A DNA stretch of 64,000 nucleotides from Terriglobia bacterium (GCA_965223005.1 CBDCVK010000010.1:128001-192000); one strand, 5' to 3'; positions 40,929 to 54,578 are shown, counted from the first letter of the stretch. Program-made: numbers and translations. The notes: generated by a model not told the origin, from the sequence alone.

Positions 40929-43502
40929 GTGCGGAATCCACTATTGCCGGTGGCCGCCGCTCTGGCCGGCGGCATTTACGATGAACGGTGGCTGCGCCTT
41001 CACGAGCAGGAGTACCTGCTTTGGATCAGCATCCTGTTGTGTGCCGCGGCGATCGCTTTGCGGCTGCGGCGCCCCGCCGGCGCCCTCGCCTTCGGGCTGC
41101 TGGGCACGGCGTTGGTCGGCTCCTTCTTCCTGTTCCACTGGCGGCACGATCGGCCGCCTGAGGATATCGCCAACCTCGTGGACGCCGGTCGCGTGGACCT
41201 CAGCGAACCCGCCCGGCTGACCGGCTGGATTGCCCAGGCAAGACTGCGTCGTGGCCGCGACGAAACCTACCTGTTGCGCCTGGAAGAAGTCGAGAGCCTG
41301 CAGCGAATCTGGCCTGCCTCTGGCACTATCCGCCTGCAGCACTTCATCCTTGACTCTTTCGAACCACGCCTGAGCCTGCGCTATGGCGAGCGGGTGAGCG
41401 TGCTGGCCCGCCTGCGGCCCGTCCGCGGCTTTCTCAATCCTGGCAGCTTCGACCGGCAAGGGCGCGCCCGCCGCCAGGGTGTGCTCTTCTACGCGAGCAT
41501 CAAGGCGGCGGAATTAGTCGAGAGGCTCTCGGGCCAGCGCGGCTCTCGATGGATGGCTGCTCTCGAGGGCCTGCGCCGTGCACTACTCGACCGCCTCGAT
41601 GCTCTGTTTCCGATACCGTCGCAGGCGAACGGGTTGCTCCGCGCTCTGCTGTTTGGAGACCGCTCAGGTCTGGATCGTCGAGTCCTGGAAAACTTTCGGA
41701 AGAGCGGTGCCTACCACGCCCTGGTTGTCTCCGGGCTCCACACTGCGGCCGTGGCCGGTTTCTTGCTGTTGCTGCCGCGCCTCTTTCGCTTGCCCCCACT
41801 TCCCGCCACGCTGCTGGCGCTGGCCGGCCTAGCCTGTTATGTCGCACTGGTCGGGAGGAGCGTGCCCACCCAGCGGGCTGCGGTCATGATTGGCCTGTAC
41901 CTGCTGGCCCGCCTGATCTACCGCGAACGCGCCCTGCTGAATACGATTGCCGCCGCCGCCTTGCTGCTGCTGATTCTCCATCCGGCCGACCTGAACGATG
42001 CGGGCTTCCAGCTTTCCTTCTTTGCCGTGCTGCTGATCGCCGCCATTGCCGTGCCCTTAATAGAGCAGACCTCGGCGCCTTACCGCAGGGCCGTGGAGGA
42101 CCTGGAGAATCGCGACCGCGATCTCACTCTGGCTCCCCCGCAGGCGCAGTTTCGCATCGAATTGCGAATGCTCGACGACGCCCTCGGCGAAAAAGTGCCA
42201 GCATGGCTTTTCCTGCCAGCCGTGCGCGGCGCTTTCCGTCTCTACGAACTGGTCGTGGTCTCGCTGGTGATTCAGGTAGGGTTTCTGTTGCCGCTGTCGG
42301 TCTATTTCTACCGTGCGAGCTGGGTTGGCGTGTCGGCCAATCTTTTCCTTGTGCCGCTTCTGGGGCTGGTGGTGCCGTTGGGAATGGCGACTCTGCTGCT
42401 GGCGCTCGTCTCCGAGACGCTGGCTGGACTGCTGGCCATTCCTCTGGCCGCGCTGCTGGGAATGATGCTGGCCGCGGCGCGCTGGCACGCTGGGCTGGCC
42501 CTGGCCTCCCTGCGCGTGCCGCCGCCTCCGCTGTGGGTCTCGGCAATGTTCCTGCTGGCGACGGCCCTGCTGGCCGGTAGCCTGCTGGCCCGCCGGGCCC
42601 GTCCGGTCGCAGCAGGCGCGCTAGCGCTGGCGGCCGCCGCGGTGCTCATCACCTGGCACCCTTTCCCGCCTCAATTGCCGCAGGGAGAGGTCGAGATTAC
42701 GACCCTCGATGTAGCCCAAGGCGATGCGCTGGTAGTGCTGGTCCCTCCGGAACGGGTGATGGTGGTGGATGTGGGCGGCTTGCCCGGGAGGCAAGTCGCC
42801 ACCGACACCGGCGAGATTGTCTCGGCTTACCTGTGGTCGCGTGGCATTCGCCGCATTGACGTGCTGGCTCTCAACCACGCCCATCACGATCATATGGCCG
42901 GCCTGGAAACGGTGATGACGAATTTCCAGGTTGCCGAACTGTGGCTCCCGTCGATCCCCGAGCTGGAAGCCTACCAGCGGCTCCAGCAAAGGGCCCGGCA
43001 ACGCGCTATCCCGGTGCACACCTACAGCCGGGGAGACACGGCCCGCCTGGGCGAGGCCACCGTCGCTTTTCTTTCCCCAGGCCCGAACTACCAACCGGCG
43101 CGGCGCCCGCACAATGACGATTCTTTGGTGATGCGACTCAGCTACGGCTGGCGCGCGGCGATGCTGGCCGGCGATGTGCAACAGACCATGGAAATGGAGA
43201 TATTGCGCGATAACGGTCCGCTGCAGGCCGACTGGCTGAAGGTGCCGCACCACGGGAGTAAGAGTTCGAACTCGCTGGAGTTCCTGTCTAAGGTGGGCGC
43301 CCCATACGGAGTGATTTCGGTAGCGGCTAACAGTCGCTTCGGTCACCCGCACCCGGAGGCTCTGGAGCGATTGCGCGATGCCCGCGTTCGCCTCTTCCGC
43401 ACCGACCGGGACGGCGCGGTCACCTGGGCCACCGATGGAAACCGCGTGCGCCTCAGCACCTTTCAGTGGGAGCGCCGCCGCGCCGCCATCGACCTGTGGT
43501 GA
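40929..43502 (+). CDS. comEC: Competence protein ComEC/Rec2
   Basis: HALVVSGLH, GFQLSF, DVAQGD, HAHHDH, KVPHHGS, FRTDRDG. Confidence 0.94.
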   Translation: MRNPLLPVAAALAGGIYDERWLRLHEQEYLLWISILLCAAAIALRLRRPAGALAFGLLGTALVGSFFLFHWRHDRPPEDIANLVDAGRVDLSEPARLTGWIAQARLRRGRDETYLLRLEEVESLQRIWPASGTIRLQHFILDSFEPRLSLRYGERVSVLARLRPVRGFLNPGSFDRQGRARRQGVLFYASIKAAELVERLSGQRGSRWMAALEGLRRALLDRLDALFPIPSQANGLLRALLFGDRSGLDRRVLENFRKSGAYHALVVSGLHTAAVAGFLLLLPRLFRLPPLPATLLALAGLACYVALVGRSVPTQRAAVMIGLYLLARLIYRERALLNTIAAAALLLLILHPADLNDAGFQLSFFAVLLIAAIAVPLIEQTSAPYRRAVEDLENRDRDLTLAPPQAQFRIELRMLDDALGEKVPAWLFLPAVRGAFRLYELVVVSLVIQVGFLLPLSVYFYRASWVGVSANLFLVPLLGLVVPLGMATLLLALVSETLAGLLAIPLAALLGMMLAAARWHAGLALASLRVPPPPLWVSAMFLLATALLAGSLLARRARPVAAGALALAAAAVLITWHPFPPQLPQGEVEITTLDVAQGDALVVLVPPERVMVVDVGGLPGRQVATDTGEIVSAYLWSRGIRRIDVLALNHAHHDHMAGLETVMTNFQVAELWLPSIPELEAYQRLQQRARQRAIPVHTYSRGDTARLGEATVAFLSPGPNYQPARRPHNDDSLVMRLSYGWRAAMLAGDVQQTMEMEILRDNGPLQADWLKVPHHGSKSSNSLEFLSKVGAPYGVISVAANSRFGHPHPEALERLRDARVRLFRTDRDGAVTWATDGNRVRLSTFQWERRRAAIDLW

Positions 43503-43648
43503 ATCTCACTGCGGGACTCGGCAGAATCTTCCACAAGGCCGCAGCTGCAAGAACTCAATCTGGCAAACGCTGGCACGTGGACGCTTGCTGGACTAAGGAG
43601 CGAAAACATATAATCGAACCGCACTGAGGCGCCCGTCCGGGATGAGCC

Positions 43649-43924
43649 ATGAGTACCGCAAGCGGGAGTCGTCTCCCGCGCAAACCCACCGAAGCTGAGA
43701 TTCGAGAAGAAAGCCGAAAAACACGGCGGCTCCAGTTCCTAGTGCACCTGGTGATGAGCGTGATCAGCCAGAGCCAGCACATGCCCATCGAGGAGGCTTC
43801 GTCGATGGTGGCGGCCACCAAGCGGGCGGCTCTGACCATGTTTCCGGACAAGGAATTTGCTTTCGACCTGATTTACAAGCCCCGCCTTCAAAGACTGCTC
43901 ACCGAAAAATACAGGATTCAATAG
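43649..43924 (+). CDS. Small hypothetical protein
   Basis: 91-aa ORF, FPDKEFAFDLIYKPRLQRL. Confidence 0.7.
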   Translation: MSTASGSRLPRKPTEAEIREESRKTRRLQFLVHLVMSVISQSQHMPIEEASSMVAATKRAALTMFPDKEFAFDLIYKPRLQRLLTEKYRIQ

Positions 43925-43977
43925 CACTGCGGTTTGGCATCTGGTAAGGATGTCAGCGGAGCGAGATCGCCTTTAGG

Positions 43978-44005
43978 TGGCGGAGAGGGAGGGATTCGAA
44001 CCCTC
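43978..44005 (-). mobile_element. 3' fragment of a tRNA-Ser (att-site remnant), left island boundary
   Basis: Minus strand GAGGGTTCGAATCCCTCCCTCTCCGCCA = T-arm, acceptor strand, G discriminator and CCA; no 5' half upstream. Confidence 0.8.
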
Positions 44006-44207
44006 ACTGTTTTCTGGAGCTACCTAAGTTACTGCTTTTCCCATGGGGCGAACGGGGCAAAGGGAGCGAAAAGCAGTATCTGGGGCATACAAAAGCGAAC
44101 CTCATCACTTGCGTCATCACCGAGACAACCGGCGCCGTCCGGCCTTGCCAAGCGGTCTATCATTAAACTGGTGCGGTGCTACTTCCTGGGGCGTTCCTCC
44201 TGATAAG

Positions 44208-44243
44208 CATAGGTAAACACTGACCGACTAGTGGGGACCTATC
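44208..44243. repeat. 15-6-15 site B1
   Basis: CATAGGTAAACACTG-ACCGAC-TAGTGGGGACCTATC. Confidence 0.85.
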
Positions 44244-44377
44244 TGCCAAGTCTGAACTAGCTTTTTCCGTTTCAGAGAATTACTGCAGCCTGAGAAAGTA
44301 TTAAGAGCGCGGGAGATAGACCAGACCAGTCATAGGAGTGGTCGTATGTGGCTATAATCACTGACTTGAGGAGTTCC

Positions 44378-46105
44378 ATGCGGTCCCTCTTGAACGAGCT
44401 GCTTATAGCGGCCGTGTTTTCCCTCATGTGTCTTCCAGCTTTGGGCCAGTTTGCTCAACCTGCTTACTCGCGGCTGGACGCGCAGGGCACTCTTCCTGCG
44501 GGGCGCGTTGACGCACCCATTGTGTACGACACACCGGGCCGCCGCTTATTAATGTTTGGCGGGAAGGATGCCGCCAGTCCGCGCAGCGACCTTTGGGAGT
44601 ATTCCTTCGATCGCCGCGAGTGGACCGAGTTGAATCCATCCGGGACCTTGCCTCCAGCTCGTTTTGGACATACCACGGTCTTTGATCCTGTTCGCCGCCG
44701 CCTGGTCTTATTTGGGGGCCAGTCCTCGGGGTTTTTCAGCGACGTTTGGGCATACGATATCGCTCAAAACACGTGGCAACAGCTTAGCTCCGACGAGGCC
44801 GGTCCGAACCGCCGGTATGGTCATTCGGCGATTTACGATGCTGCGAGAGATCGCCTTATCATCTCGCACGGGTTTACGAACGCCGGCCGATTCGATGACA
44901 CCTGGGCCTTTGAGCTGGGGACAAACACTTGGCAAGAGATCTCATCTTCCGAAATCAGGCCACTCCGTCGCTGTTTACACCACTCGGTTTACGACGAAGA
45001 AAACGGGCAAATGCTGTTGTTCGGGGGGTGCGCCAGTGGATTCGGCCCGTGCCCCCTGGATGATCTATGGTCGTTCGATTTGAGCACAAACCAATGGACG
45101 GAGCGCGGTCCGGCCCCTAAACCGGCGGCCCGACAATGGTATGGCATGGCGTTTGATCACACTCGCAGTCGGCTAGTCCTGTTTGGCGGATTAGGCGGCG
45201 GCTCTCTCAACGACACTTGGGAGTACGACACAGTCGCCGACTCCTGGAACCAACTCGCGCCCAGCGGCGAGATTCCCGTTGGCAGGTTTCGGCACGAAGC
45301 CACTTTTGTTGCCGATCTAGGAGCAGTCCTGTTTTTCGGCGGTCGTGTCGACTCCGGTCCCAGCAACGAACTCTGGATGCTGTCCTACTCCTCAAACGCC
45401 GTCGTCAACGCCGCCACGTTTCTTCCTGGCCTTGCTGCTCCGGGGCAAATCCTCACCCTGTTCGGCACCGATCTGGCCTCGATGACCTCTGGGGCCGGGG
45501 CACCGCCATTGCCGACCATGCTTGGGGGAGCGAGCGTGAAATTGGGGGACTTCGACGCTCCGCTGTTCTTCGTCTCGGCGCTTCAAATCAATTTCCAAGT
45601 CCCCTGGGAATTGGCGGGGCAGTCGCAGGCGTCCCTGATCGTTGCAAACGGCGGTACCACAATCGGCCCGATGAATGTGAGTCTGGCTCCCTTTGCTCCT
45701 GGCCTGTTTAGCACCGATCAGAGCGGCAGCGGCCAGGGAGCTATCCTGATCTCCGGCAGCGGGGGAGCGGCAGCAGCGCCCAGTGGTGCTTTGCCTGGTT
45801 CTCGGCCAGTCAGGCGTGGTGAATTTATCGAAATCTTCTCTATCGGCCTTGGGGCTGTGGAGAAACAGCCCGCCACTGGCGCGCCGGCATTGGCAAATCC
45901 CTTGTCGATGAGCACCTCGACTCCCGTGGTCACCATTGGCGGCGTGCACGCCGCCGTCAGTTTTTCCGGACTGGCTCCTGGTTTCGTAGGGCTTTACCAA
46001 GTCAACGCGGAGGTTCCGGCTAATGCCCGCACGGGGGACGCCGTCCCCGTGGTTCTCACCATTGGTCGTGCCACGTCCAACACCGTTACGATCGCCGTGC
46101 AGTAG
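44378..46105 (+). CDS. Secreted Kelch-repeat beta-propeller protein with TIGR03437-like C-terminal domain
   Basis: Six LFGG...D.W.Y repeats; VVNAATF..QINFQVP..GLAPGFVGLYQVN..SNTVTIAVQ. Confidence 0.88.
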   Translation: MRSLLNELLIAAVFSLMCLPALGQFAQPAYSRLDAQGTLPAGRVDAPIVYDTPGRRLLMFGGKDAASPRSDLWEYSFDRREWTELNPSGTLPPARFGHTTVFDPVRRRLVLFGGQSSGFFSDVWAYDIAQNTWQQLSSDEAGPNRRYGHSAIYDAARDRLIISHGFTNAGRFDDTWAFELGTNTWQEISSSEIRPLRRCLHHSVYDEENGQMLLFGGCASGFGPCPLDDLWSFDLSTNQWTERGPAPKPAARQWYGMAFDHTRSRLVLFGGLGGGSLNDTWEYDTVADSWNQLAPSGEIPVGRFRHEATFVADLGAVLFFGGRVDSGPSNELWMLSYSSNAVVNAATFLPGLAAPGQILTLFGTDLASMTSGAGAPPLPTMLGGASVKLGDFDAPLFFVSALQINFQVPWELAGQSQASLIVANGGTTIGPMNVSLAPFAPGLFSTDQSGSGQGAILISGSGGAAAAPSGALPGSRPVRRGEFIEIFSIGLGAVEKQPATGAPALANPLSMSTSTPVVTIGGVHAAVSFSGLAPGFVGLYQVNAEVPANARTGDAVPVVLTIGRATSNTVTIAVQ

Positions 46106-46279
46106 CCCCTGACAAACCCAGTGTTTCTGAGGTTCGCGCTGGACACGTCGTTGTGACTCTGATTCAATCCGAGGAACTGCGTGGCGGGTCGCATTTCCAA
46201 GCATTGCTCTCGGATGGCCAAACCTCGTTAGGTTTCCCCGCCGGCAGCGCGATGGCAATCTGGTGTTCGGATAAATGAC

Positions 46280-47599
46280 ATGCGAGACGAATTCACCCTT
46301 ACGCGTCGCCGGCTCATTGGTTCGAGTGTGGTGCTCGGAGCTTCAGGAGTAACCGCGGCCTCGGCGGCACTGAGCCCATCACACACTCGGCATCGCATCC
46401 ACCGGTCGGCACAATTACTCGCGCAAGAGTTTACCGTGGCTGCCAAGGTCCCCACGCCAGACCACTACATGCACGATCCAGGGATGACCCGGCTCGGCAA
46501 TGGTCGAATATTTGTCGCGGCGCCGTTAATGGGCTGGCGTGACAAGCGCGTAGCACGCCGAACCCGGAGTCTGCGTTTCATTGTGTCAAGAGAATTGCTT
46601 CTGTCTCGGAGTCGGGATGGAGGGAAGAGCTGGGAGTCTCTGCGGCCTTTACCGTACGTCAATGCAACTCCATTTGTTCATGACGGCAAGCTCTACATGA
46701 TGATCCCGACGGCAACCTATGAAACCCGGCACGATGGGGACAACAAGCTGCTTCTGCTCCGCAGCGATGATGAGGGTGATACCTGGTCCGACCCGGTCAC
46801 GCTGTTTGAAGGTAACTACTGGAATTGTCACACTGGCATGGCGACGGCGGGTGGCCAGCTCTATTGGGCCCTCACGAAAGGCGGCCGTCTCGTCGCGATT
46901 GCCGCCGACCTCTCGAAGGACTTGATGCAACCCGGCACGTGGCGGATGTCGAACGCCGTAAGCTTCCCCGGTGTGCCCCCTAGTCTTACTCGCGAGCTCT
47001 ATCCTCCAAAGGCGGGCGTATGGCCGGTCCAATGGGCTTCGGACGCATGGCTGGAGCCGAATGTTGTCCATGTTCACGGCCGCCTCCTCGTTCTGCTTCG
47101 CACGATCATTGACGAATACGCAACCGCGAGCCTTTGCAGCGTCTGCGACCTCGAGGACAGTGAATCGACGCTGAAGCTTTCCTTCTCGCAGTTCTATCCT
47201 CTCCCGGGCGGTCAGAACAAGTTCTTCATCCTTTACGACGACGTTTCCCGGCTGTTTTGGATGGCGTCCAATTTGGTGACCGATTCACAGGACTTTCAGA
47301 ACAACCGTGAAAGACTCATCGAGATCGGCTACCACGGAGGCCCAGGCAACGAACGTCGTCTCCTGTTTTTGTCCTACAGCCTCGACGCGTTGAATTGGTT
47401 TCCGGCTGGATGTATCGCCAAGTGGCCCAGTCCTCTGCAGGCATTCATGTATCCGTGCGTAGCGGTGGATGGGGACGACCTCGTGCTCATTTCTCGCACG
47501 TCGAAGGACGCTCAGAATCAGCACGACGCCGACCTGGTCACGTTCCACCGAATTCAGGACTTCCGGTCTTTGGCTCTGAACCTCCGTCCGGAGATCTAA
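46280..47599 (+). CDS. Tat-exported BNR/Asp-box (sialidase-fold) protein
   Basis: TRRRLI Tat signal; SRDGGKSW and SDDEGDTW Asp-boxes. Confidence 0.8.
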   Translation: MRDEFTLTRRRLIGSSVVLGASGVTAASAALSPSHTRHRIHRSAQLLAQEFTVAAKVPTPDHYMHDPGMTRLGNGRIFVAAPLMGWRDKRVARRTRSLRFIVSRELLLSRSRDGGKSWESLRPLPYVNATPFVHDGKLYMMIPTATYETRHDGDNKLLLLRSDDEGDTWSDPVTLFEGNYWNCHTGMATAGGQLYWALTKGGRLVAIAADLSKDLMQPGTWRMSNAVSFPGVPPSLTRELYPPKAGVWPVQWASDAWLEPNVVHVHGRLLVLLRTIIDEYATASLCSVCDLEDSESTLKLSFSQFYPLPGGQNKFFILYDDVSRLFWMASNLVTDSQDFQNNRERLIEIGYHGGPGNERRLLFLSYSLDALNWFPAGCIAKWPSPLQAFMYPCVAVDGDDLVLISRTSKDAQNQHDADLVTFHRIQDFRSLALNLRPEI

Positions 47600-47781
47600 G
47601 CACAGAGCGCAACTCAAGGCTGCACCCCACCAGTACACGAGGGCAAGGGTGGTCAGGGCGGGCGGATTGCCGCTCACCTGCATACTCCTCTGCCCACGGA
47701 TTCCGGTCATTGTGTCTGAGAACCTACTGAGCCGTGTACCCACCATCCACCATGAGCGGCGTGGCGGTAATAAAGGAAGCC

Positions 47782-49220
47782 GAGAGTGTCTCACCTTTAG
47801 TTGAAAGTCGAGCGGCGGTTCGCTGACCTGGTTCCGTAGAATCGGGTTGGGAAACTTTCTGGAAAGGGGAACCGCCGTGCAGAGAAGCTACCACATCCTA
47901 GGCCGGAGCGATAGCCGAAGCTCCCGCAAACTGGCTGCCTACCTGGCTCGCCACGGGCAGTTTCTGCTGCCCTGGGTGGAGTTGATCGAACAATCGCGGT
48001 TAGCCGTCGACGAGCTGATCGACGTGGTGGGTAGGGCGGCGATTGAAGCGGTGCTGGAGTTGTCGGCCGCGCAGGTGGCCGGTCCACGCCGTCAGGGCCG
48101 GCGGCGCCGTGGGGTAGGCTGGTATGGGCGCCAGCGGGGACGGGTGCGCCTGAAGGAGAGAAAGCTGGCCGTGCACAGGCCACGGCTCCGGCGGCCAGGC
48201 CGGGGAGCGGGGAAAGAAGTTCCCCTCCCGGCCTACGAAGCCATGCAGGAGGGCGAGGGTCTGGGGGCCCGGATGTTGGATATCTTGCTGCGGGGCGTCT
48301 CGACCCGGCAGTACCAGCGGGTGTTGCCGGAGATGGCGGACACCGTGGGTGTGTCGCGCTCCACGGTCAGCCGGGAAACGATGGAGGCTGCCGCAGCCGA
48401 GTTAGAACGTCTGTTGAACCGCCGCTTCGAGGAAGTAGAGTTGCTGATCCTCTACATCGACGGGATGGTGTTTGGCGACCATCACGTGATTGCGGCTGTG
48501 GGCGTGGATGCGGAAGGGCACAAGCACGTGCTGGGGATTCAGGAGGGGGCTACGGAGAACGCCGCGGCCGTCCAGGACTTGCTGGAAGGTTTAGTGCGGC
48601 GAGGGGTGCAGCCGGCCCAGAAACGGCTGTTTGTGATCGACGGCTCGAAGGCCTTGCGGGCGGCGATCCGCGCCGTGTTCGGGGCCGAGCAGCCGGTGCA
48701 GCGCTGCCGCGCCCACAAGTTGCGCAACGTCCTGGACCGGTTGCCGGAGCCAGAGCGGGACCAGGTGCGGGCGGCGATGCGGGCCGCCTGGCGGTTGGAT
48801 CCGAAGACCGGCAGGGCCAAGCTGGAGAAGTTGGCCCAATGGTTGGAGCGAGATTGTCCGGCCGCGGCGGCCAGCTTGCGGGAGGGTCTGGAGGAATGTT
48901 TCACCATCAACCGGCTGGGGCTTCCGGCTTCGCTGCATCGCTGTCTGGCCACCACCAATCTCATCGAGAGTCCGCAGGCGGGAGTGAGGTTGCGAACTCG
49001 CCGGGTGTGCCGCTGGCGGGATGCGGCCATGGTCCAGCGCTGGGTCGCCTCCAGCTTCCTGGCCACGGAGAAAAACTTCCGCCGCCTGATGGGGTACCAG
49101 GACCTGTGGATGTTGAAAGCGATCCTCGAAGGATCAAAGTCGGCCACTCGACGGGAGGTGGCGTAGTATGATGGCTCCGAACCGCCGCTACGAACTTTCA
49201 ACTGAGTTCAGGACACCCTC
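47782..49220 (+). mobile_element. Complete IS256-family element (1439 bp)
   Basis: About 41-bp imperfect TIRs (GAGAGTGTC..AGTTGAAAGT..AGCGGCGGTTCG); 8-bp TSD AGGAAGCC at 47774-47781 and 49221-49228. Confidence 0.95.
47877..49166 (+). CDS. IS256-family transposase
   Basis: GVSTR, YIDG, VIDGSKAL, QRCRAHK, TTNLIES. Confidence 0.95.
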   Translation: MQRSYHILGRSDSRSSRKLAAYLARHGQFLLPWVELIEQSRLAVDELIDVVGRAAIEAVLELSAAQVAGPRRQGRRRRGVGWYGRQRGRVRLKERKLAVHRPRLRRPGRGAGKEVPLPAYEAMQEGEGLGARMLDILLRGVSTRQYQRVLPEMADTVGVSRSTVSRETMEAAAAELERLLNRRFEEVELLILYIDGMVFGDHHVIAAVGVDAEGHKHVLGIQEGATENAAAVQDLLEGLVRRGVQPAQKRLFVIDGSKALRAAIRAVFGAEQPVQRCRAHKLRNVLDRLPEPERDQVRAAMRAAWRLDPKTGRAKLEKLAQWLERDCPAAAASLREGLEECFTINRLGLPASLHRCLATTNLIESPQAGVRLRTRRVCRWRDAAMVQRWVASSFLATEKNFRRLMGYQDLWMLKAILEGSKSATRREVA

Positions 49221-49988
49221 AGGAAGCCTCCTCAGAGGCAAGGAAGAGAATGGCATTCGCCACTTCGCGAGGATCGCCCATGCGCTTGATGAAATGCAGC
49301 GGTGCATACAGTTCCACTACCTGTTCCTTGGTCAGTCCCTTACTTGTGGCATCGCGCATTGTGGCGGGGGTATCTATAGCTCCCGGGCAGACGCAATTCA
49401 CGCGAATGTTATCCGGCGCCAGATCGAAGGCTAGGCATCGTGTCATCTGCAGCACTGCCCCTTTGCTGGCATTGTAGGGGACAAAAGCAGGCTGCGCGAT
49501 GAATGAGCTAATGGAGCCCAGGTTTACGATGGACCCGCCTCCGCGCTTTCGCATGTGGGGGACAGCGTACTTGGAGCAGAACGCGTACCCTTTGACGTTC
49601 ACGTTCAGGACCCGGTCCCAATCCTGCTCGCTGGCCTCTTCCACTGTTCCGAAAACAAAGGCCGCCGCGTTGTTCACCAGGATATCCGGGCCACCCAGTT
49701 CGCGGGCAGCGGTGTTCATCAGCTCCCGCACTTCGGACTCGATGGAGATATCGGTCTTGTGAAAGAAGGTCCTACCGCCGGCAGCTTTGATCCGGGCCAC
49801 AGTCTCCTCGCCGCCGCGGACGTCTAGGTCCGCTACACAAACAGCAGCGCCCTCCTCGGCAAAACGAATTGCCGTAGCCCGGCCAATTCCCGAACTTGAG
49901 CCGGTAACCACCGCCACTTTGTTCGCTAGACGCATGTTCTCCTCCTCAGCTCATTTCACCTGCGGCTTTCAGAACTTCTGCCTCAAAA

Positions 49989-50094
49989 CATGAGTAAACA
50001 CTAACGGGCTAGCGTTTACCAATGTTCTGCCTGGATGGTATGGCGTTCCTTAGTTAAGGATAGGTAAACACTAACCGACAAGTGGAAACCTACC
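49989..50094. repeat. Paired 15-6-15 sites A1 + linker + B2
   Basis: CATGAGTAAACACTA-ACGGGC-TAGCGTTTACCAATG (49989-50024); GATAGGTAAACACTA-ACCGAC-AAGTGGAAACCTACC (50059-50094). Confidence 0.9.
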
Positions 50095-50200
50095 TGCCAA
50101 GTCGGAGCCAACTCTTGCCGTATTAGGAAGGCCGCCGCTGATCACCGAGAGACAGATCGTGGCTGAAACCGCGTTCTGAGTGTGAGGGGAAAGAGAACTC

Positions 50201-51055
50201 TCACGGGTCACGGCGTTTCGGTGGGGCAGCTGACACGCCTTCTAAGCCACCACTGACTCTGAGCACCTCGCCCGTGATCCAAGAGGCTGCCGGACTGCAC
50301 AGAAAAGCAACGCTCCGTGCGATATCGGCTGGCTCTCCCCATCGCCCCAGCGGGATAGCGCTGCGAATGCGCTCAATCATCTGATCCTCGCTGAGATTCA
50401 GGGTTTGGCAGCGCTGCGCCATGACGGTCTTGTTAAATTCCGTGTAGACAGGCCCCGGACTCACGGCGTTTACCCGCACGCCGTAGGCGGCAAGCTCTAG
50501 TGCCAACGTCTTGGTCAGACTGATCACACCGGCCTTGGCCACGTTGTAGGCCGCGACCAGCGCTGCTGGATTCTGGCCGTTGATGGAGGCAATATTGACG
50601 ATACACCCGGATCCCTGCCGCTCCATGATTCGTGCTGCGGCGCGGCAACAACAGAACGTTCCGGTCAAGGTGACACCTAGGACGCGTGCCCATTCCTGGT
50701 CTGTCAGATGGACGACCGGGGCGACGTCTTGTCCAACACCGGCATTGTTGACCAGAATGTCCAACCGACCGTATTCAGCAACTGTCCTGTCGAAGAACCC
50801 GGTCACCCCACTACTGGCGGAGATATCCAAATGGGCTGGCTGCACATTCGAACCTTGCTCCCGCAACCTTTGGGCCGATGCCTGTGCATTTTCCAGTCTG
50901 ATGTCAGCTATGATCACCCCGGCGCCGTCGCAGGCAAGCTGCTCAGCGATCCCCAAGCCCAGCCCCTGGGCCGCTCCGGTCACCACCGCAACTAAGCCAT
51001 CCAGCCTATGCAAAGAAGTCGTACCTTCACTCATGAACGAACTCCCTTGATGCAT
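50201..51055 (-). CDS. SDR family oxidoreductase (FabG-like)
   Basis: TGAAQGLG, NNAG, YNVAK, PLGRWGEP. Confidence 0.92.
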   Translation of the reverse strand: MHQGSSFMSEGTTSLHRLDGLVAVVTGAAQGLGLGIAEQLACDGAGVIIADIRLENAQASAQRLREQGSNVQPAHLDISASSGVTGFFDRTVAEYGRLDILVNNAGVGQDVAPVVHLTDQEWARVLGVTLTGTFCCCRAAARIMERQGSGCIVNIASINGQNPAALVAAYNVAKAGVISLTKTLALELAAYGVRVNAVSPGPVYTEFNKTVMAQRCQTLNLSEDQMIERIRSAIPLGRWGEPADIARSVAFLCSPAASWITGEVLRVSGGLEGVSAAPPKRRDP

Positions 51056-51143
51056 TATCCCCGTCCAGCAAGACTACAGAGTCGGCCACAGCTACCACAT
51101 GACCGATCCGGCCAATGGACGTCAAGGTCTTACTCATTGGGTT

Positions 51144-51503
51144 TCATGGGCGGTCTCGGAGCGGTATTAACTCTCGGCAATTGGTAACGAAAGCATCAAG
51201 ATTATCAGGGACGAATCTAATACGCGGTGGCCAACCTCGCCTCCGGACGTACACGTGTGGATGGAATGCGGCCCAATCGTTATTGTACGACCACCAAGTC
51301 TCAATCGGGCGACGGAAAGCATCGGCAGCCACCGGCTTGGGACGTACGCCGATCTCTATGATCTTGTCGAATGGAATCTTGATCGCGTGGAAAAGAATCC
51401 GTGCTTCCAGCTCAATTCGGTCGCGGTAGATACGATACTCTTGACGCCAACTGAGACGGTGGGGATTGGAAACGTAAACCGGATCGTCTGTCGCGCTTCC
51501 CAT
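51144..51503 (-). CDS. Hypothetical protein
   Basis: 119-aa ORF with GAGG RBS; no recognised motif. Confidence 0.6.
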   Translation of the reverse strand: MGSATDDPVYVSNPHRLSWRQEYRIYRDRIELEARILFHAIKIPFDKIIEIGVRPKPVAADAFRRPIETWWSYNNDWAAFHPHVYVRRRGWPPRIRFVPDNLDAFVTNCRELIPLRDRP

Positions 51504-51555
51504 TCCTCGACTCGTTGACCTCAGCCACTACCCCAGAGTCAATTTACCGACCTGC

Positions 51556-51891
51556 TCATTGAGCCTTAGTTAGTTCAACACCGTCCACGACCATTTTCCA
51601 TCTACCGCCTTCTTGGTAAGGCGGCTTGGAAACGACGAAGATGGTTGAAAGGAATGAGATACCAACAGAGAAATCATCGCCTTGGAATCCTTGGAGAGGC
51701 CCAGTAATTGACGTTTTTCTCCCTTCCTTAAGCCGTTCGTATTCTATGCTCCCGTCTTGTGTAATTAACAGATACATTTCTGGGGCCCTCCACTGGCCAA
51801 CGTAGTCTGCTTTGTCAGCCGGGACTGGTTTGCCACAACTGGACAGAAATAACGTGAGAAGAAGGATTGCGGGAATTGCTCGAACGTTCAT
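51556..51891 (-). CDS. Hypothetical lipoprotein
   Basis: MNVRAIPAILLLTLFLSSC lipobox; WKMVVDGVEL terminus. Confidence 0.75.
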   Translation of the reverse strand: MNVRAIPAILLLTLFLSSCGKPVPADKADYVGQWRAPEMYLLITQDGSIEYERLKEGRKTSITGPLQGFQGDDFSVGISFLSTIFVVSKPPYQEGGRWKMVVDGVELTKAQ

Positions 51892-52167
51892 ATGGTGTCC
51901 CTTAGCTGGAATTTCCGGTTTCAACCCTTGCTCGGCTCCAGATTCTGGCCGGTCATGCGCCCCCCTCTTGCCGGCCATGCTACGCCCCGCCCCGCAGCCA
52001 AGTCAACGCGGCGACCCGGCCAGGCGCCGTTAGCTCTGCCGTCGTTGACAGTTTAAGGCCCGCGCGACCTAGACTCTGCCACATCTCTCCATTAGGCCCT
52101 TAGCCGCGCCACTGATTCCTCGGTGGCATAGCCTGCTCGCATGGTTGCCCCGTGATCCTGAATGCCG

Positions 52168-52272
52168 GATAGGTCTTCCCTAACGGGCTAGCGTTTACCA
52201 ATGTTCTGCCTGGATGGTATGGTGTTCCTTAGTAAGGATAGGTAAACACTAACCGACTAGTTGGGGCCTATC
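52168..52272. repeat. Paired 15-6-15 sites A2 + linker + B3
   Basis: GATAGGTCTTCCCTA-ACGGGC-TAGCGTTTACCAATG (52168-52203); GATAGGTAAACACTA-ACCGAC-TAGTTGGGGCCTATC (52237-52272). Confidence 0.9.
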
Positions 52273-52302
52273 TGTCACGGCACTAGTTCGAGGAGGTGGT
52301 TC

Positions 52303-52827
52303 ATGATTCGAAGATCAACCCTGGTTTCGACGCTCTTTCTCTTGGTCTCGGTGTCGGCGATCTCTCTCGCGGCGGACCACAAGAGGATTTTGACTGTTGA
52401 TGTTGCGTTGGCGAAAATCGCCGGCGGTGCCCTGACTGCGAGCAGCACGACCTCTCTACCGGTTCTCTATTTCGACACCGCCCAGGTGGCTGCCGCCTTT
52501 GACCGGGGCGCGGTGGTGCTGGGCGAAGAGCCCGGGCGCAACTACCAGGTGCACGCCAGTCGGCGCGAAAAAGCCGGCGAGGTTGAAGTACACCTGTTGG
52601 ATACGGATATTTTCTATGTGCTCCGAGGCACCGCAACTTTCGTCACCGGAGGCACGGTCGTGGGCGGAAAGACAACCGCGCCGAATGAGATCCTTGGGGC
52701 ATCCATCCGCGACGGCAAGACTCACCAGTTAGTTAAAGGCGACGTCATCATCGTGCCTCAAAGCACGCCCCACTGGTTCAAGCAAGTGAAGGCGCCCTTC
52801 CTCTACTTCGTTGTTAAAGTGCGCTGA
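52303..52827 (+). CDS. Secreted cupin-domain protein
   Basis: AGGAGG RBS; signal peptide; EVH..TDIFYVLRG and GDVIIVPQSTPHWF cupin motifs. Confidence 0.85.
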   Translation: MIRRSTLVSTLFLLVSVSAISLAADHKRILTVDVALAKIAGGALTASSTTSLPVLYFDTAQVAAAFDRGAVVLGEEPGRNYQVHASRREKAGEVEVHLLDTDIFYVLRGTATFVTGGTVVGGKTTAPNEILGASIRDGKTHQLVKGDVIIVPQSTPHWFKQVKAPFLYFVVKVR

Positions 52828-52847
52828 GGTCGGGTTCAGCAATGCCG

Positions 52848-52883
52848 GATAGGTCCACACTAACGGGCTAGTGTTTACTTACG
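52848..52883. repeat. 15-6-15 site A3
   Basis: GATAGGTCCACACTA-ACGGGC-TAGTGTTTACTTACG. Confidence 0.88.
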
Positions 52884-53068
52884 TTCCAGCCTGGACGTAT
52901 CTGGACGCCGGGAGGATCTATCTGGCATAATTGGTCCATCCGTGTTTGAAGCGCCAGGCTCTGGGGGGCTAAGCGTCGGGACGCGAGAGCCTCACAAACG
53001 CGTTTTTCGCCACTACGACGCGTGCACGGACCGGGAAGACCGTCGGTTCGCGGCAGGTGTCGTGATGA

Positions 53069-54163
53069 ATGGAACAACCCGTGCAACTTAGCAAAACCAC
53101 TTTCCCCTTCCTGCTGATAACAGCATTTCTGTTTTCATGCGGTACACCAAGAGCGCCCGAGAAGGCCACTGCTCCAGTCGAGGGAAAAATCGTCCCGACC
53201 GACGCCAAGCTGGAACACGTTTTCACGCGAACGGCCGACATCAAGGGAGGCCTGACAGAGGGACCGGCAGTGGCACCCGACGGCAGCATCTACTTTTCGG
53301 ACATCGCCTTCGGAAAAGACAAAGGCATGATCCTGCGCTTGGACCCGAAAACAGGCGAAACCACTGTCTTTGCCAAAGACAGCCACAAGTCCAACGGGCT
53401 AGCCTTCGACGCCGAGGGTCATTTGATCGCCGCCGAGGGGGCCGACTACGGCGGCCGGCAGATTTCGCGCTGGAACGTTGAAACCGGCAAGCGCACAACA
53501 TTGGCGGACAACTACAAGGGCAAGAAATTTAACGCGCCCAACGACCTCGCTATCGACAACCGGGGACGCGTCTACTTCAGCGATCCGCGATACCTGGGCC
53601 CGGAAACTCGCGATCTCGACTACTTCGCTATTTTCAGGGTCAACAAAGATGGGACGGTCATTGAAATTACTCGCGAGGTAGCTAAACCGAACGGTGTGGC
53701 CCTTAGCCTGGATGAGAAAACGCTTTACGCAGCCGACCTCGACAACGGGAGTGAGCATGTCGACGACCCTAATGCGCCGCCCGCAACGCCGGGACCAATG
53801 AAAGTCTATGCTTTCCCACTCAGTCCAGATGGCTTGGTATCGGGCGAACGGAAGACCCTAGTGGACTTTGGAGACCAAGCCGGCTGCGACGGCATGACCG
53901 TGGACGAAGAAGGAAACATCTATCTGGCGGTCCGCAGCGCGAAACGTCCCGGGGTAATGATCATAAATCCCGAAGGCGAAGAACTCGGGTTCATCCCCAC
54001 AGGTCCGCCCCACCAGGAAGGCGCGGAGAAACTAGTGGGCTTGCCAAGCAATGTCGAATTCGGCATCGGCGAAGAAGCGAACGTGCTCTATGTGACCATC
54101 GACACCAGCCTTTACCGGGTCCGGCTCAACGTTGGAGGCTCCCATCCTCACCACGCGCAGTAG
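53069..54163 (+). CDS. SMP-30/gluconolactonase-family lipoprotein
   Basis: TEGPA, SNGL, NAPNDL, PNGVALS, DGMTVD; LFSC lipobox. Confidence 0.9.
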   Translation: MEQPVQLSKTTFPFLLITAFLFSCGTPRAPEKATAPVEGKIVPTDAKLEHVFTRTADIKGGLTEGPAVAPDGSIYFSDIAFGKDKGMILRLDPKTGETTVFAKDSHKSNGLAFDAEGHLIAAEGADYGGRQISRWNVETGKRTTLADNYKGKKFNAPNDLAIDNRGRVYFSDPRYLGPETRDLDYFAIFRVNKDGTVIEITREVAKPNGVALSLDEKTLYAADLDNGSEHVDDPNAPPATPGPMKVYAFPLSPDGLVSGERKTLVDFGDQAGCDGMTVDEEGNIYLAVRSAKRPGVMIINPEGEELGFIPTGPPHQEGAEKLVGLPSNVEFGIGEEANVLYVTIDTSLYRVRLNVGGSHPHHAQ

Positions 54164-54166
54164 TGT

Positions 54167-54230
54167 GGCGAATGACAAAGCTTGCGCCCCCGGGTTCACG
54201 TGCCTGCCCGGCTGCAGCGGCTTGTTAGGC
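54167..54230 (-). mobile_element. Degenerate integron attC-like site
   Basis: Minus strand starts GCCTAACAAGCCGCTGCAGCCG; far end degenerate (GTCATTCGCC). Confidence 0.5.
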
Positions 54231-54467
54231 ATCAACATGCCCTTCCAAGACCCTGCGTCCCATCCGGCCTGAAGAGCCGGCCGGCAACATCGGCGTCCCC
54301 GACGAGAAGTTCTCTCATGAGCTTCTCGATCTCGCCGTCCACAAGGAGCCGGCTAGAAGAGCACAAGTCCGATCGGCCTTCTCAGTGAGCGAGCGTCTGA
54401 ACTCCAGCACTTCACCCAGGCAAAGGTTGATCTCCGGTGACAACTGGCCTAGCTTGTCACTATGCAT
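54225..54467 (-). pseudogene. Decayed cassette ORF resembling the MtlR (mannitol repressor)-family N-terminus
   Basis: EFRRSLTEKADRTCALLAGS, then +1 frame VDGEIEKLMRELL..LFRPDG; lies between two attC-like sites. Confidence 0.5.
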
Positions 54468-54495
54468 AGTCGTTCACGCTTTGCCTGCACGTTGT

Positions 54496-54578
54496 GCCTA
54501 ACGACCAGGCGCTGCAGCCAAACCCTCGCTTTTGGCGGCTTTGCTGCAGCCCGGCTCTGCTGTAGCCTATCGTTAGGC
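54496..54578 (-). mobile_element. Integron attC-like site (83 bp)
   Basis: GCCTAACGA...TCGTTAGGC (RYYYAAC/GTTRRRY) with inner GCTGCAGC/GCTGTAGC pairing. Confidence 0.7.

Follow-up and report, generated by a model that had tools for sequence, protein, structure and literature searches.

A stretch of 64,000 nt from a Terriglobia bacterium (GCA_965223005.1 CBDCVK010000010.1:128001-192000), hereafter the window, was analysed together with the genome from which it comes (G000, an assembly of 3.24 Mb in 10 contigs, in which the window is G000:C10:128001-192000) and with three genomes of the same genus, G001, G002 and G003 (completeness of 96% for G000, 62% for G002 and 97% for G003). The subject is an array of short asymmetric sites in the window, separated by gene-carrying segments (cargos), and in particular two near-identical blocks within that array. 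As established from ~50 copies in G000, each site is 38 bp long and is organised as 16-6-16, with an X arm of 16 nt (GGATAGGTCCCCACTA) whose inner 4-5 nt are variable, a spacer of 6 nt and a conserved Y arm of 16 nt, which reads Y' = TAGCGTTTACCTATCC when met on the far side. The arms are swapped between the two kinds of site, the A site being X-ACGGGC-Y' and the B site Y-ACCGAC-X'. The array runs as B, 5.7 kb, A-linker-B (unit 1), 2.1 kb, A-linker-B (unit 2), 0.6 kb and A, and so includes two further half units, the B site at 44207-44244 and the A site at 52847-52884. The X arms look toward the genes and the Y arms toward the linker, so that cargo edges are X arms and linker edges are Y arms, the exception being the left arm of the A site of unit 1. 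The features are the following, those called ORF being open reading frames:

44207..44244 (+): B-type site 0, with Y arm GCATAGGTAAACACTG, spacer ACCGAC (44223-44228) and X' arm TAGTGGGGACCTATCT; a degenerate linker-like stretch on its left and the conserved B-right flank on its right, to ~44290
44348..49935 (mixed strands): cargo 1
44348-46105 (+): gene of cargo 1, Kelch-repeat protein
46280-47599 (+): gene of cargo 1, BNR-like protein
47782-49220: insertion sequence (IS) of the IS256 family in cargo 1, with a Mutator transposase ORF at 47847-49166 (+) and 27-nt inverted ends
49219-49935 (-): gene of cargo 1, SDR1
49988..50025 (+): A site of unit 1, with left arm ACATGAGTAAACACTA (inner/B-left type), spacer ACGGGC (50004-50009) and Y' arm TAGCGTTTACCAATGT
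50001..50079 (+): shared block, copy 1 ('Y module'), composed of CTA, ACGGGC, Y' arm, 37-nt linker, Y arm and ACCGAC
50058..50095 (+): B site of unit 1, with Y arm GGATAGGTAAACACTA, spacer ACCGAC (50074-50079) and X' arm AAGTGGAAACCTACCT, the conserved B-right flank TGCCAAGTCGGAGCCAACTCTTGCCG following directly
50201..51978 (-): cargo 2
50201-51055 (-): gene of cargo 2, SDR2
51144-51503 (-): gene of cargo 2, 119-aa ORF
51556-51978 (-): gene of cargo 2, 140-aa ORF
52167..52204 (+): A site of unit 2, with X arm GGATAGGTCTTCCCTA, spacer ACGGGC (52183-52188) and Y' arm TAGCGTTTACCAATGT, the short A-left flank AATGCC standing ahead
52180..52257 (+): shared block, copy 2, 78 nt
52236..52273 (+): B site of unit 2, with Y arm GGATAGGTAAACACTA, spacer ACCGAC (52252-52257) and X' arm TAGTTGGGGCCTATCT
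52261..52827 (+): cargo 3, cupin-domain protein, its likely start being the ATG at 52303, behind GAGGAGG
52847..52884 (+): A-type site 3, with X arm GGATAGGTCCACACTA, spacer ACGGGC and Y' arm TAGTGTTTACTTACGT, with half a linker after it
52910..52922 (+): relic of an X' arm, GGGAGGATCTATC, immediately 5' of the region of the SGL gene
53069-54163: SGL gene

The near-identity of the two blocks, pointed out in the initial annotation of the window, was recovered by a repeat search: 50001-50079 (79 nt) and 52180-52257 (78 nt) differ at two places, namely a substitution (C50044 vs. T52223) and an indel, unit 2 being short of one T from the TT at 50054-50055. Each block is made up of CTA, the spacer ACGGGC, an inner arm, a linker of 37 or 36 nt, a second inner arm and the spacer ACCGAC. 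The further observation that the outer arms diverge markedly and that identity breaks at the spacers was also confirmed, as 5 of 12 positions match between the left outer arms (CATGAGTAAACA vs. GATAGGTCTTCC) and 9 of 15 between those on the right (AAGTGGAAACCTACC vs. TAGTTGGGGCCTATC), both counted by eye, and the flanks beyond the outer arms of units 1 and 2 have no similarity. With two differences in 79 nt on the inside compared to about half of the adjoining arm positions, the break is too sharp for ordinary decay, and because identity falls sharply at both spacers, duplication of a whole unit followed by decay cannot explain the pattern. What was copied or exchanged is the block alone. Moreover, a core pattern of 12 nt (CTAACSGRCWAG, up to one mismatch) had eight matches in the window, while 100 shuffles of the window gave a mean of 1.14 and a maximum of 4, and a chance origin of the core matches is therefore excluded.

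The outer arms had further been described as keeping the arm consensus, which did not apply to the left arm of unit 1; this arm is of the inner (Y) type, GAGTAAACA rather than GGTCCCCA. The A site of unit 1 is a Y/Y hybrid, in which a B-left half, with a flank of B-left type, is joined at the spacer edge to an A-right half. In a zero-mismatch search, Y-N6-Y' sites appeared once in G000 (unit 1) and once at the orthologous place of G001, with none in G002 or G003, and no X-N6-X' site was found in the four genus genomes. The core polarity is constant in A and B sites (CTAAC-NNN-CTAG) and, throughout the genus, the spacer is tied to the arm order, ACGGGC always lying on the A side and ACCGAC always on the B side. 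The information content was highest in the 12-nt centre of the site, formed by the spacer and CTA/TAG (1.70 and 1.61 bits per position), the values being 1.26 and 1.38 bits for the Y arm, ~0.9-1.4 bits for the X arm and 0.4-0.6 bits for the flanks. The X arm varied without a compensating change in the partner arm.

When folded as single-stranded DNA and compared to shuffles, the two full units were not better than these (z -1.76 and -1.10), single sites gave z values of -1.88, -0.69 and -0.46, and the shortened third unit (52843-52926) gave -3.22. Because the centre is conserved, the reverse of what is expected of a hairpin, this is taken as evidence that the sites would be recognised as duplex DNA by a protein with two different half-site specificities. 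The same results bear on a reading of the units as integron-like attC sites, recombined as folded single strands. Such a reading would fit the layout (outer arm, spacer, inner arm, linker, inner arm, spacer, outer arm), the non-complementary spacers and the position between promoter-less cassettes. However, no integron integrase exceeded the cut-off, the units did not fold significantly, the two cores are direct and not inverted repeats, and identity breaks at both spacers and not only at the 3' end; the attC reading is regarded as largely refuted, and its probability as minimal.

The sites belong to a dispersed family. An arm pattern with 21 fixed arm positions was searched on both strands with up to three mismatches, the reversed pattern serving as control, and gave 33 matches in G000, 50 in G001, 33 in G003 and 7 in the 62% complete G002, with 0 control matches in each of them. 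Outside the genus, 20 of 147 other Terriglobia genomes had a total of 46 matches (e.g. 12 in G017, 8 in G127, 4 in G106 and 3 in G036), the control reaching 7 across all 151 genomes. The B-type pattern had 23, 30 and 28 matches in G000, G001 and G003, respectively, and outside the genus 0-1 per genome (one match in each of 4 out of 58), as in the control. In the other Terriglobia the same arms enclose spacers of two classes, ACGCCG or ACGGCG and GTCGCC or GTCGGC, and doublets occur there too, G017 having a pair of sites 8 nt apart. Furthermore, the exact 18-nt A-site pattern was found at three loci of a genome contig collection, all from one Terriglobia metagenome-assembled genome, at seven loci of metagenome contigs, where ~3 short contigs look like true members, and in 0 viral contigs. 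A scan of seven loci of the family against Rfam (E up to 1) gave no match, and a limited literature search found no description of the site family, which is apparently undescribed. As a separate observation, G131, from another family of the class, carries 3.8 kb (C11:391.8-395.6 kb) that are 98% identical to G001, a short-linker doublet included, and has several IS families in common with the genus at 85-99% identity. This stretch may represent horizontal transfer or mis-binning, and for that reason its near-identical doublet does not count as independent evidence.

Some of these positions would suit operator-type sites of a conserved regulator or nucleoid protein, carried on small repeats, where the identity of the blocks would be due to selection. 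Families across the class conserve a long outer palindrome, GGATAGGT ... ACCTATCC; the sites are intergenic, often just past stop codons or before gene starts; and a single site lies downstream of one radical-SAM gene in both G017 and G021, a B site of G001 being ~165 nt from the G000-homologous DNA that adjoins this gene. Nevertheless, conserved flanks of at least 100 nt and their mosaic arrangement indicate copies by descent and not independent operators, the two spacer classes are tied to the arm order without an obvious regulatory reason, and the sites are associated with island and synteny edges, all of which leaves the operator explanation highly improbable.

The same array is found in G001, with 95-98% identity in the aligned parts. 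Its orthologous units carry the same two differences between blocks, and since both genomes hold them, the copying of the block is older than the split of G000 and G001. Between these genomes there were 0 changes in the 157 nt of the blocks and 4 changes in the ~64 nt of the four outer arms, the surrounding DNA being 97.3-97.5% identical. By our own arithmetic, ~4 changes would be expected in the blocks at a divergence of 2.6%, and the Poisson chance of finding none is ~0.02; on this count, the block is to be seen as constrained since the split.

The differences between the two arrays lie in the cargos. G001 is without the IS256 copy of cargo 1, an element that is polymorphic (the joint 47773>49221 appears in contigs of three out of four public runs) and of which G003 has two copies at 100% identity (rounded). 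In cargo 2, G001 carries an IS of 1658 bp at the equivalent of 51453 (L040 12255-13912; L041 10782-12440), a second, inverted copy of which, 99.8% identical, lies 268 kb away, with copies also in G000. The resulting 268-kb difference in cargo 2 was considered as a site event and rejected, being an IS-mediated inversion unrelated to the sites. Elsewhere, one A site kept in G001 was lost from G000 by a non-specific deletion of 494 bp. Just upstream of unit 2, a dispersed repeat occupies 51944-52140, with copies at C10:958.7 kb and in at least eight places of G003; it contains TTGACA (52045-52050) and TAGACT (52070-52075), 19 nt apart, their direction being that of unit 2 and the cupin gene; a short hairpin (GCCAC...GTGGC) comes next.

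In G002, window positions 43945-52889 are missing and 92 unrelated bases stand instead, the right edge of the gap (52889) being 5 nt beyond the last A site. At the start of this island there is a tRNA 3' fragment on the minus strand (~43972-44003), with an exact match of 28 nt at C10:222037-222064, and after it a repeat of 70 nt with further copies at C10:95.6 kb, C10:97.7 kb and C1:21.7 kb; ARAGORN found no intact tRNA at 43945-44204. An island beginning in this way might be explained by tandem accretion of integrase-less integrative elements, B then being attL and A attR, the block the common core that each integration duplicates, and the integrase one supplied in trans. Besides the island being absent from G002 and starting with a tRNA fragment, the recurrent B..cargo..A order, the direct repeats around cargo 2 and the resemblance of the Y/Y site of unit 1 to a regenerated empty site agree with such elements. 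We consider them improbable all the same, as, unit 1 apart, there is no Y/Y site (attB-type) and no X/X' site (attP-type) in the four genomes, ~33-50 sites per genome are spread over many loci and do not form a single attB, no integrase lies beside the sites genus-wide, and the outermost copies are without a full core.

The sites are embedded in a larger mosaic. Many A sites extend on their Y side into a conserved arm of ~50 nt, and many B sites are preceded by its inverted copy. In the long form, seen in G003, a hairpin of ~100 nt separates an A site from the B site that follows, the centre folding with a z of -4.43 and the two sites remaining outside the stem. The units of the window are of the short-linker form, as are those at C2:519 kb of G000, in G001 (L056) and in G131. 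On the X side, subfamilies conserve ~30 nt in the case of A and 45-90 nt in the case of B. When pairs of sites were classified by the similarity of their flanks, the B-type pairs were similar in both flanks in 11 cases, in the left only in 29, in the right only in 39 and in neither in 111 (odds ratio 1.08, P-value 0.84), and the A-type pairs in 24, 23, 109 and 279 cases, respectively (odds ratio 2.7, P-value 0.002), the P-values being rough because the pairs are not independent. Among A-B pairs, 2 out of 600 shared the left flank and 33 the right flank, the left-flank families being specific to the spacer class. Overall, the flank subfamilies combine almost freely around the site, and as the left and right flanks are uncoupled (odds ratio of 1.08 for B-type pairs), the site acts as a joint. 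The layout B..cargo..A was found seven times in G000, four of them outside the window, with ordinary accessory genes as cargo and no transposase of their own.

The unlike arms, the alternating orientation, the two spacer classes, the conserved centre, the re-assorting flanks and the hybrid site are the grounds for reading the sites as recombination joints similar to those of dif modules, the 79-nt block being a small 'Y module' that exchange at the spacers would have copied. Island and synteny edges add to these grounds: the gap of G002 ends 5 nt beyond the last A site, and of 16 further loci of G001 with sites, seven lose colinearity with G000 at ~200 nt or less from the site, a proportion without a rearrangement baseline and from IS-rich genomes. 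This is the reading that we favour, although we place its probability slightly short of an even chance. A tyrosine recombinase of the two-arm (heterodimer-type) kind would both recognise the sites as duplex DNA and cross over at them, much as at the pdif sites by which dif modules are delimited on Acinetobacter plasmids. As neighbouring sites are oppositely oriented, the segments between them are bounded by two X arms or by two Y arms; an X-bounded segment would be a gene-carrying cargo and a Y-bounded one the 37-nt linker or, elsewhere, the ~100-nt hairpin. Given that ACGGGC is always on the A side and ACCGAC always on the B side, a segment would be swapped or copied by one exchange per end, and not lost. 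In the case studied here, the Y module may have been placed at two loci by exchanges ending in or beside the two spacers, before G000 and G001 separated, and have stayed unchanged since then. We infer from the sequences the action of a recombinase, its identity, and exchange rather than gene conversion as what made the block.

A broader proposal is that Terriglobia carry, on the chromosome, a counterpart of the dif-module system of Acinetobacter. Its two spacer classes would be mutually incompatible, and a conserved host pair (a long XerC-like protein and XerD) or an unrecognised enzyme would use the sites to copy gene modules and swap them between loci without loss, in a natural 'cassette exchange' network of 30-50 joints per genome in one genus and of low copy number class-wide. 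We regard this proposal as possible but doubtful.

The initial annotation had seen in the arm-linker-arm stretch a constant inner module, with outer arms travelling with each cargo and strand exchange within the spacers. Its constancy holds, the block being kept at two loci in both G000 and G001, while exchange at the spacers is reasonable but unproven. The expectation that identity breakpoints would fall at the spacer fits the uncoupling of flanks around the site, and does not fit the breakpoints between G000 and G001, which lie in the linker, the Y arm and the core edge. On the other hand, the contrast drawn with a miniature transposable element with inverted repeats (MITE), which would conserve its termini best, proved apt: conservation is lowest in the outer arms and flanks, no transposase other than unrelated IS256 copies lies inside the A..B or B..A intervals examined, and no duplications were seen at the junctions inspected. 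The Y module occurs at two loci with different arms and the X' arm of SGL in four contexts; no replacement of a module between constant flanks was seen in the genomes compared. A comparison by eye of seven B..A pairs and five units gave no convincing covariation of the X arm with cargo or unit partner, the arms being near consensus and hence uninformative.

The idea that outer arms travel with their cargo applied to the SGL gene and, loosely, to the BNR gene, that is, to two of five cargo genes in G003. On the 5' side of SGL, an X'-arm relic or a full site was present in all four copies compared from three genomes, the relic being common to G000, G002 and the G003 locus L047, and a full Y-spacer-X' site abutting the gene at the G003 locus L048; the BNR gene of G003 has an A site ~85 nt upstream. 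The remaining three failed the idea: homologues of cargo genes are scattered over both contigs of G003, and those of SDR1 (which sits there with an intact upstream gene), SDR2 and the 140-aa ORF have no site in ~2 kb on each side. Outer arms unlinked to cargo had been named from the outset as the contrary result, and these site-free homologues therefore count against the claim. In addition, SDR2 (50213-51056) and the 140-aa ORF (51552-51894) are 94% and 87% identical to their G003 homologues, with a similarity that stops exactly at the coding ends in unrelated surroundings; this coding-only similarity suggests gene-sized transfer or conversion, and would be unusual for orthologues.

These site-free genes are one of several observations that weigh against recombination joints, a second being the extent of the repeat. 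Conservation exceeds the core site, with 30 nt past X, 45-90 nt past X' and hairpin halves of 50 nt, and sequence conserved well past the site in the genus makes the pattern typical of a mobile repeat. Sites of G017 lie between housekeeping genes (rpoD, recD2, yaeQ), and also next to a TonB-dependent receptor. The left edge of the gap in G002 falls 260 nt before the first B site, beside the tRNA 3' fragment. In three G000/G001 junctions, the switch is 9 nt outside a Y arm (in the linker), within a Y arm, and at a B core's left edge, respectively. Among the four genus genomes no clean reciprocal exchange was found, and neither was a clean insertion or excision in the loci compared (16 of G001 and several of G003 and G002). 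Six public runs, all in the form of contigs, contain most of the region. The contigs of four of them, compared over 43500-54500, had, besides the joint of the IS256 polymorphism, only joints explained by other copies of the repeat, and are uninformative on excision: the joint 52210>44209, present in all four runs, has 21 inserted letters that are those of the C2:519 kb unit, and the joint 44242>52840, in one contig of one run (side 32), is best explained in the same way. Apart from this, an IS3-family element (1160 bp, two overlapping ORFs), at least 99% identical between G000 and G001, occurs at seven loci of G001, among them L067 (1727-2886). At least two of the G001 loci have it 120-200 nt away from A sites, and at others the distance is a few kb at most.

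The enzymes present weigh in the same direction, as no recombinase gene was found linked to the sites. The A..B and B..A intervals examined held no autonomous element, only ordinary genes and unrelated IS256 copies. Tyrosine recombinases gave 12 matches in G000, among which XerD is present (C6:110.8 kb; 355 bits, cut-off 329.6) and a XerC-like protein of 479 aa stays below its cut-off (316 bits vs. 335). There is no integron integrase in G000, the best TIGR02249 match (86.8 bits vs. a cut-off of 265) being the XerD gene. An integrase of 596 aa, with a half site on one side and a B site on the other at C10:107-109 kb, is unique to G000, and the integrase beside the two sites of C10:107-114 kb was rejected as the enzyme, as it is present in G000 only; also rejected were the serine recombinases, two large ones and a short fragment, which are far from any site. 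The usual inner dif palindrome was not in the sites by pattern scans, and scans for the host dif gave one weak candidate of ATAA-N6-TTAT type at C10:1630196-1630221. This palindrome is identical in G001 and was not found, with up to three mismatches, in the other 19 relatives searched; being confined to G000 and G001, it does not establish the host dif. The XerC-like protein and XerD are the only conserved candidates seen for acting at the sites. The XerC-like gene (G000:C2:179.6 kb; L091 771-2210) encodes an N-terminal extension of ~170 aa outside the matched NCBIfam recombinase models.

The strongest rival, which we consider possible yet on balance unlikely, is a non-autonomous mosaic repeat resembling MITEs or the families of repetitive extragenic palindromes (REP), bacterial interspersed mosaic elements (BIME) and REPINs, cargo being simply the genes that lie between insertions. 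The central identity would then be gene conversion between direct copies 2.1 kb apart, stopped at the divergent X arms, and purifying selection would subsequently preserve the centre. The repeat has many copies, which are intergenic and unevenly spread over the class, with an expansion in one genus; its two unit types occur in doublets, with several linker types and in both relative orientations, as BIMEs do; and many copies are truncated or halved. The conservation well past the 38-bp site, the long hairpin form (z of -4.4), the G017 sites between housekeeping genes and the want of a clean event or a linked enzyme for recombination point the same way, and REP families that persist without a linked transposase appear in the part of PMC3733652 drawn on here. 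However, neither the sites nor the short units show significant structure, conservation peaks in what would be the loop, and variation in the X arm is not compensated in the partner arm. Target-site duplications were not seen at the junctions inspected, nor was a clean presence or absence of a whole unit, and a re-assortment of flanks exactly around the 38-bp joint would need an extra process.

The transposases also speak against a REP-like origin. Genes of Y1 transposases, including the REP-associated tyrosine transposases (RAYT; PF01797), had 0 matches in G000 and G003 (96% and 97% complete), and those of G001, G002 and G127, the last adjacent to a site, are flanked by other repeats. The G127 copy, 230 nt from a site, was rejected as the cognate enzyme, as it has perfect 17-nt inverted repeats of its own. 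The Y1 genes L081 and L082 (G001) and L080 (G002) are on insertions of 0.9-1.1 kb missing from the orthologous places of G000 (C6:553/598 and C5:200925/200977); these look IS200-like and were set aside as unrelated to the A and B sites.

If the sites are recombination joints, dif-module-type shuffling would not be peculiar to Acinetobacter plasmids and would also take place in chromosomes of a dominant soil phylum, the heavy rearrangement that sets close relatives in this genus apart would have a mechanism, and the two spacers would be a natural design that keeps cassettes exchangeable yet stable. If they are REP- or BIME-like, they would still be an undescribed, class-wide family with a well-preserved centre for protein recognition and no RAYT, which bears on how such repeats spread without a dedicated transposase. 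Under either reading, the 38-bp site is a sharply defined target for finding the binding protein.

The nearest known counterpart of the favoured reading, that is, of recombination joints, are the dif modules of Acinetobacter plasmids, which are bounded by pdif (XerC/XerD) sites (PMC13141974, PMC6449649 and PMC12907356, each as far as the portions used here go). According to the portion used of PMC13141974, there are C and D modules, recombination takes place between sites with identical spacers, and a single module can be replaced by one exchange on each side. The likeness includes two unlike arms around a 6-bp spacer, one of them better conserved; neighbouring sites in inverse orientation, with modules bounded by like arms (C and D there, X cargo and Y linker here); some modules without an ORF; and a cargo of ordinary accessory genes. 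By analogy, exchange would be expected only between matching spacers, and replacement of single modules would be possible. In contrast, the present sites are chromosomal, in a genus of Terriglobia (Acidobacteriota), and not on Rep_3 plasmids; their arms have 16 nt and, in pattern scans, no inner palindrome of the usual dif type; the spacer classes number only two and follow the arm order strictly; the Y modules are either very small, with 67 nt from spacer to spacer, or hairpins; conservation continues for 30-90 nt beyond the arms; and the sites are known from sequence alone.

With the REP, BIME and REPIN elements and their RAYT transposases (described, in the portions used, in PMC3733652, PMC3116915, PMC3337134 and PMC2817692) the family has in common two types of short, imperfect palindrome, inverted doublets joined by defined linkers, and mosaic clusters that are intergenic, lineage-restricted and of tens of copies, with singlets beside doublets. 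It differs from them in its weak stems and in a centre, the 'loop', that is the most conserved part. The GTAG/CTAC tag is seen in one hairpin subtype only and not at the 38-bp sites, no RAYT was found in two near-complete genomes with 33 pattern matches each, and the sites coincide with island and synteny edges.

The likeness to integron attC sites consists of paired inverted binding boxes, unpaired spacers, a location between gene cassettes and arrays without a nearby integrase, which we take to be a situation like that of CALINs (clusters of attC sites lacking integron integrases). Unlike in integrons, there is here no IntI and no significant single-strand fold, sequence rather than structure is conserved, and identity breaks on both sides of the unit. 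Finally, the sfx sites on which Rci acts in shufflons have a conserved spacer and one conserved arm, the other arm being variable, as at the sites described here; shufflons, however, invert segments inside one gene, while the present sites are dispersed between unrelated genes.

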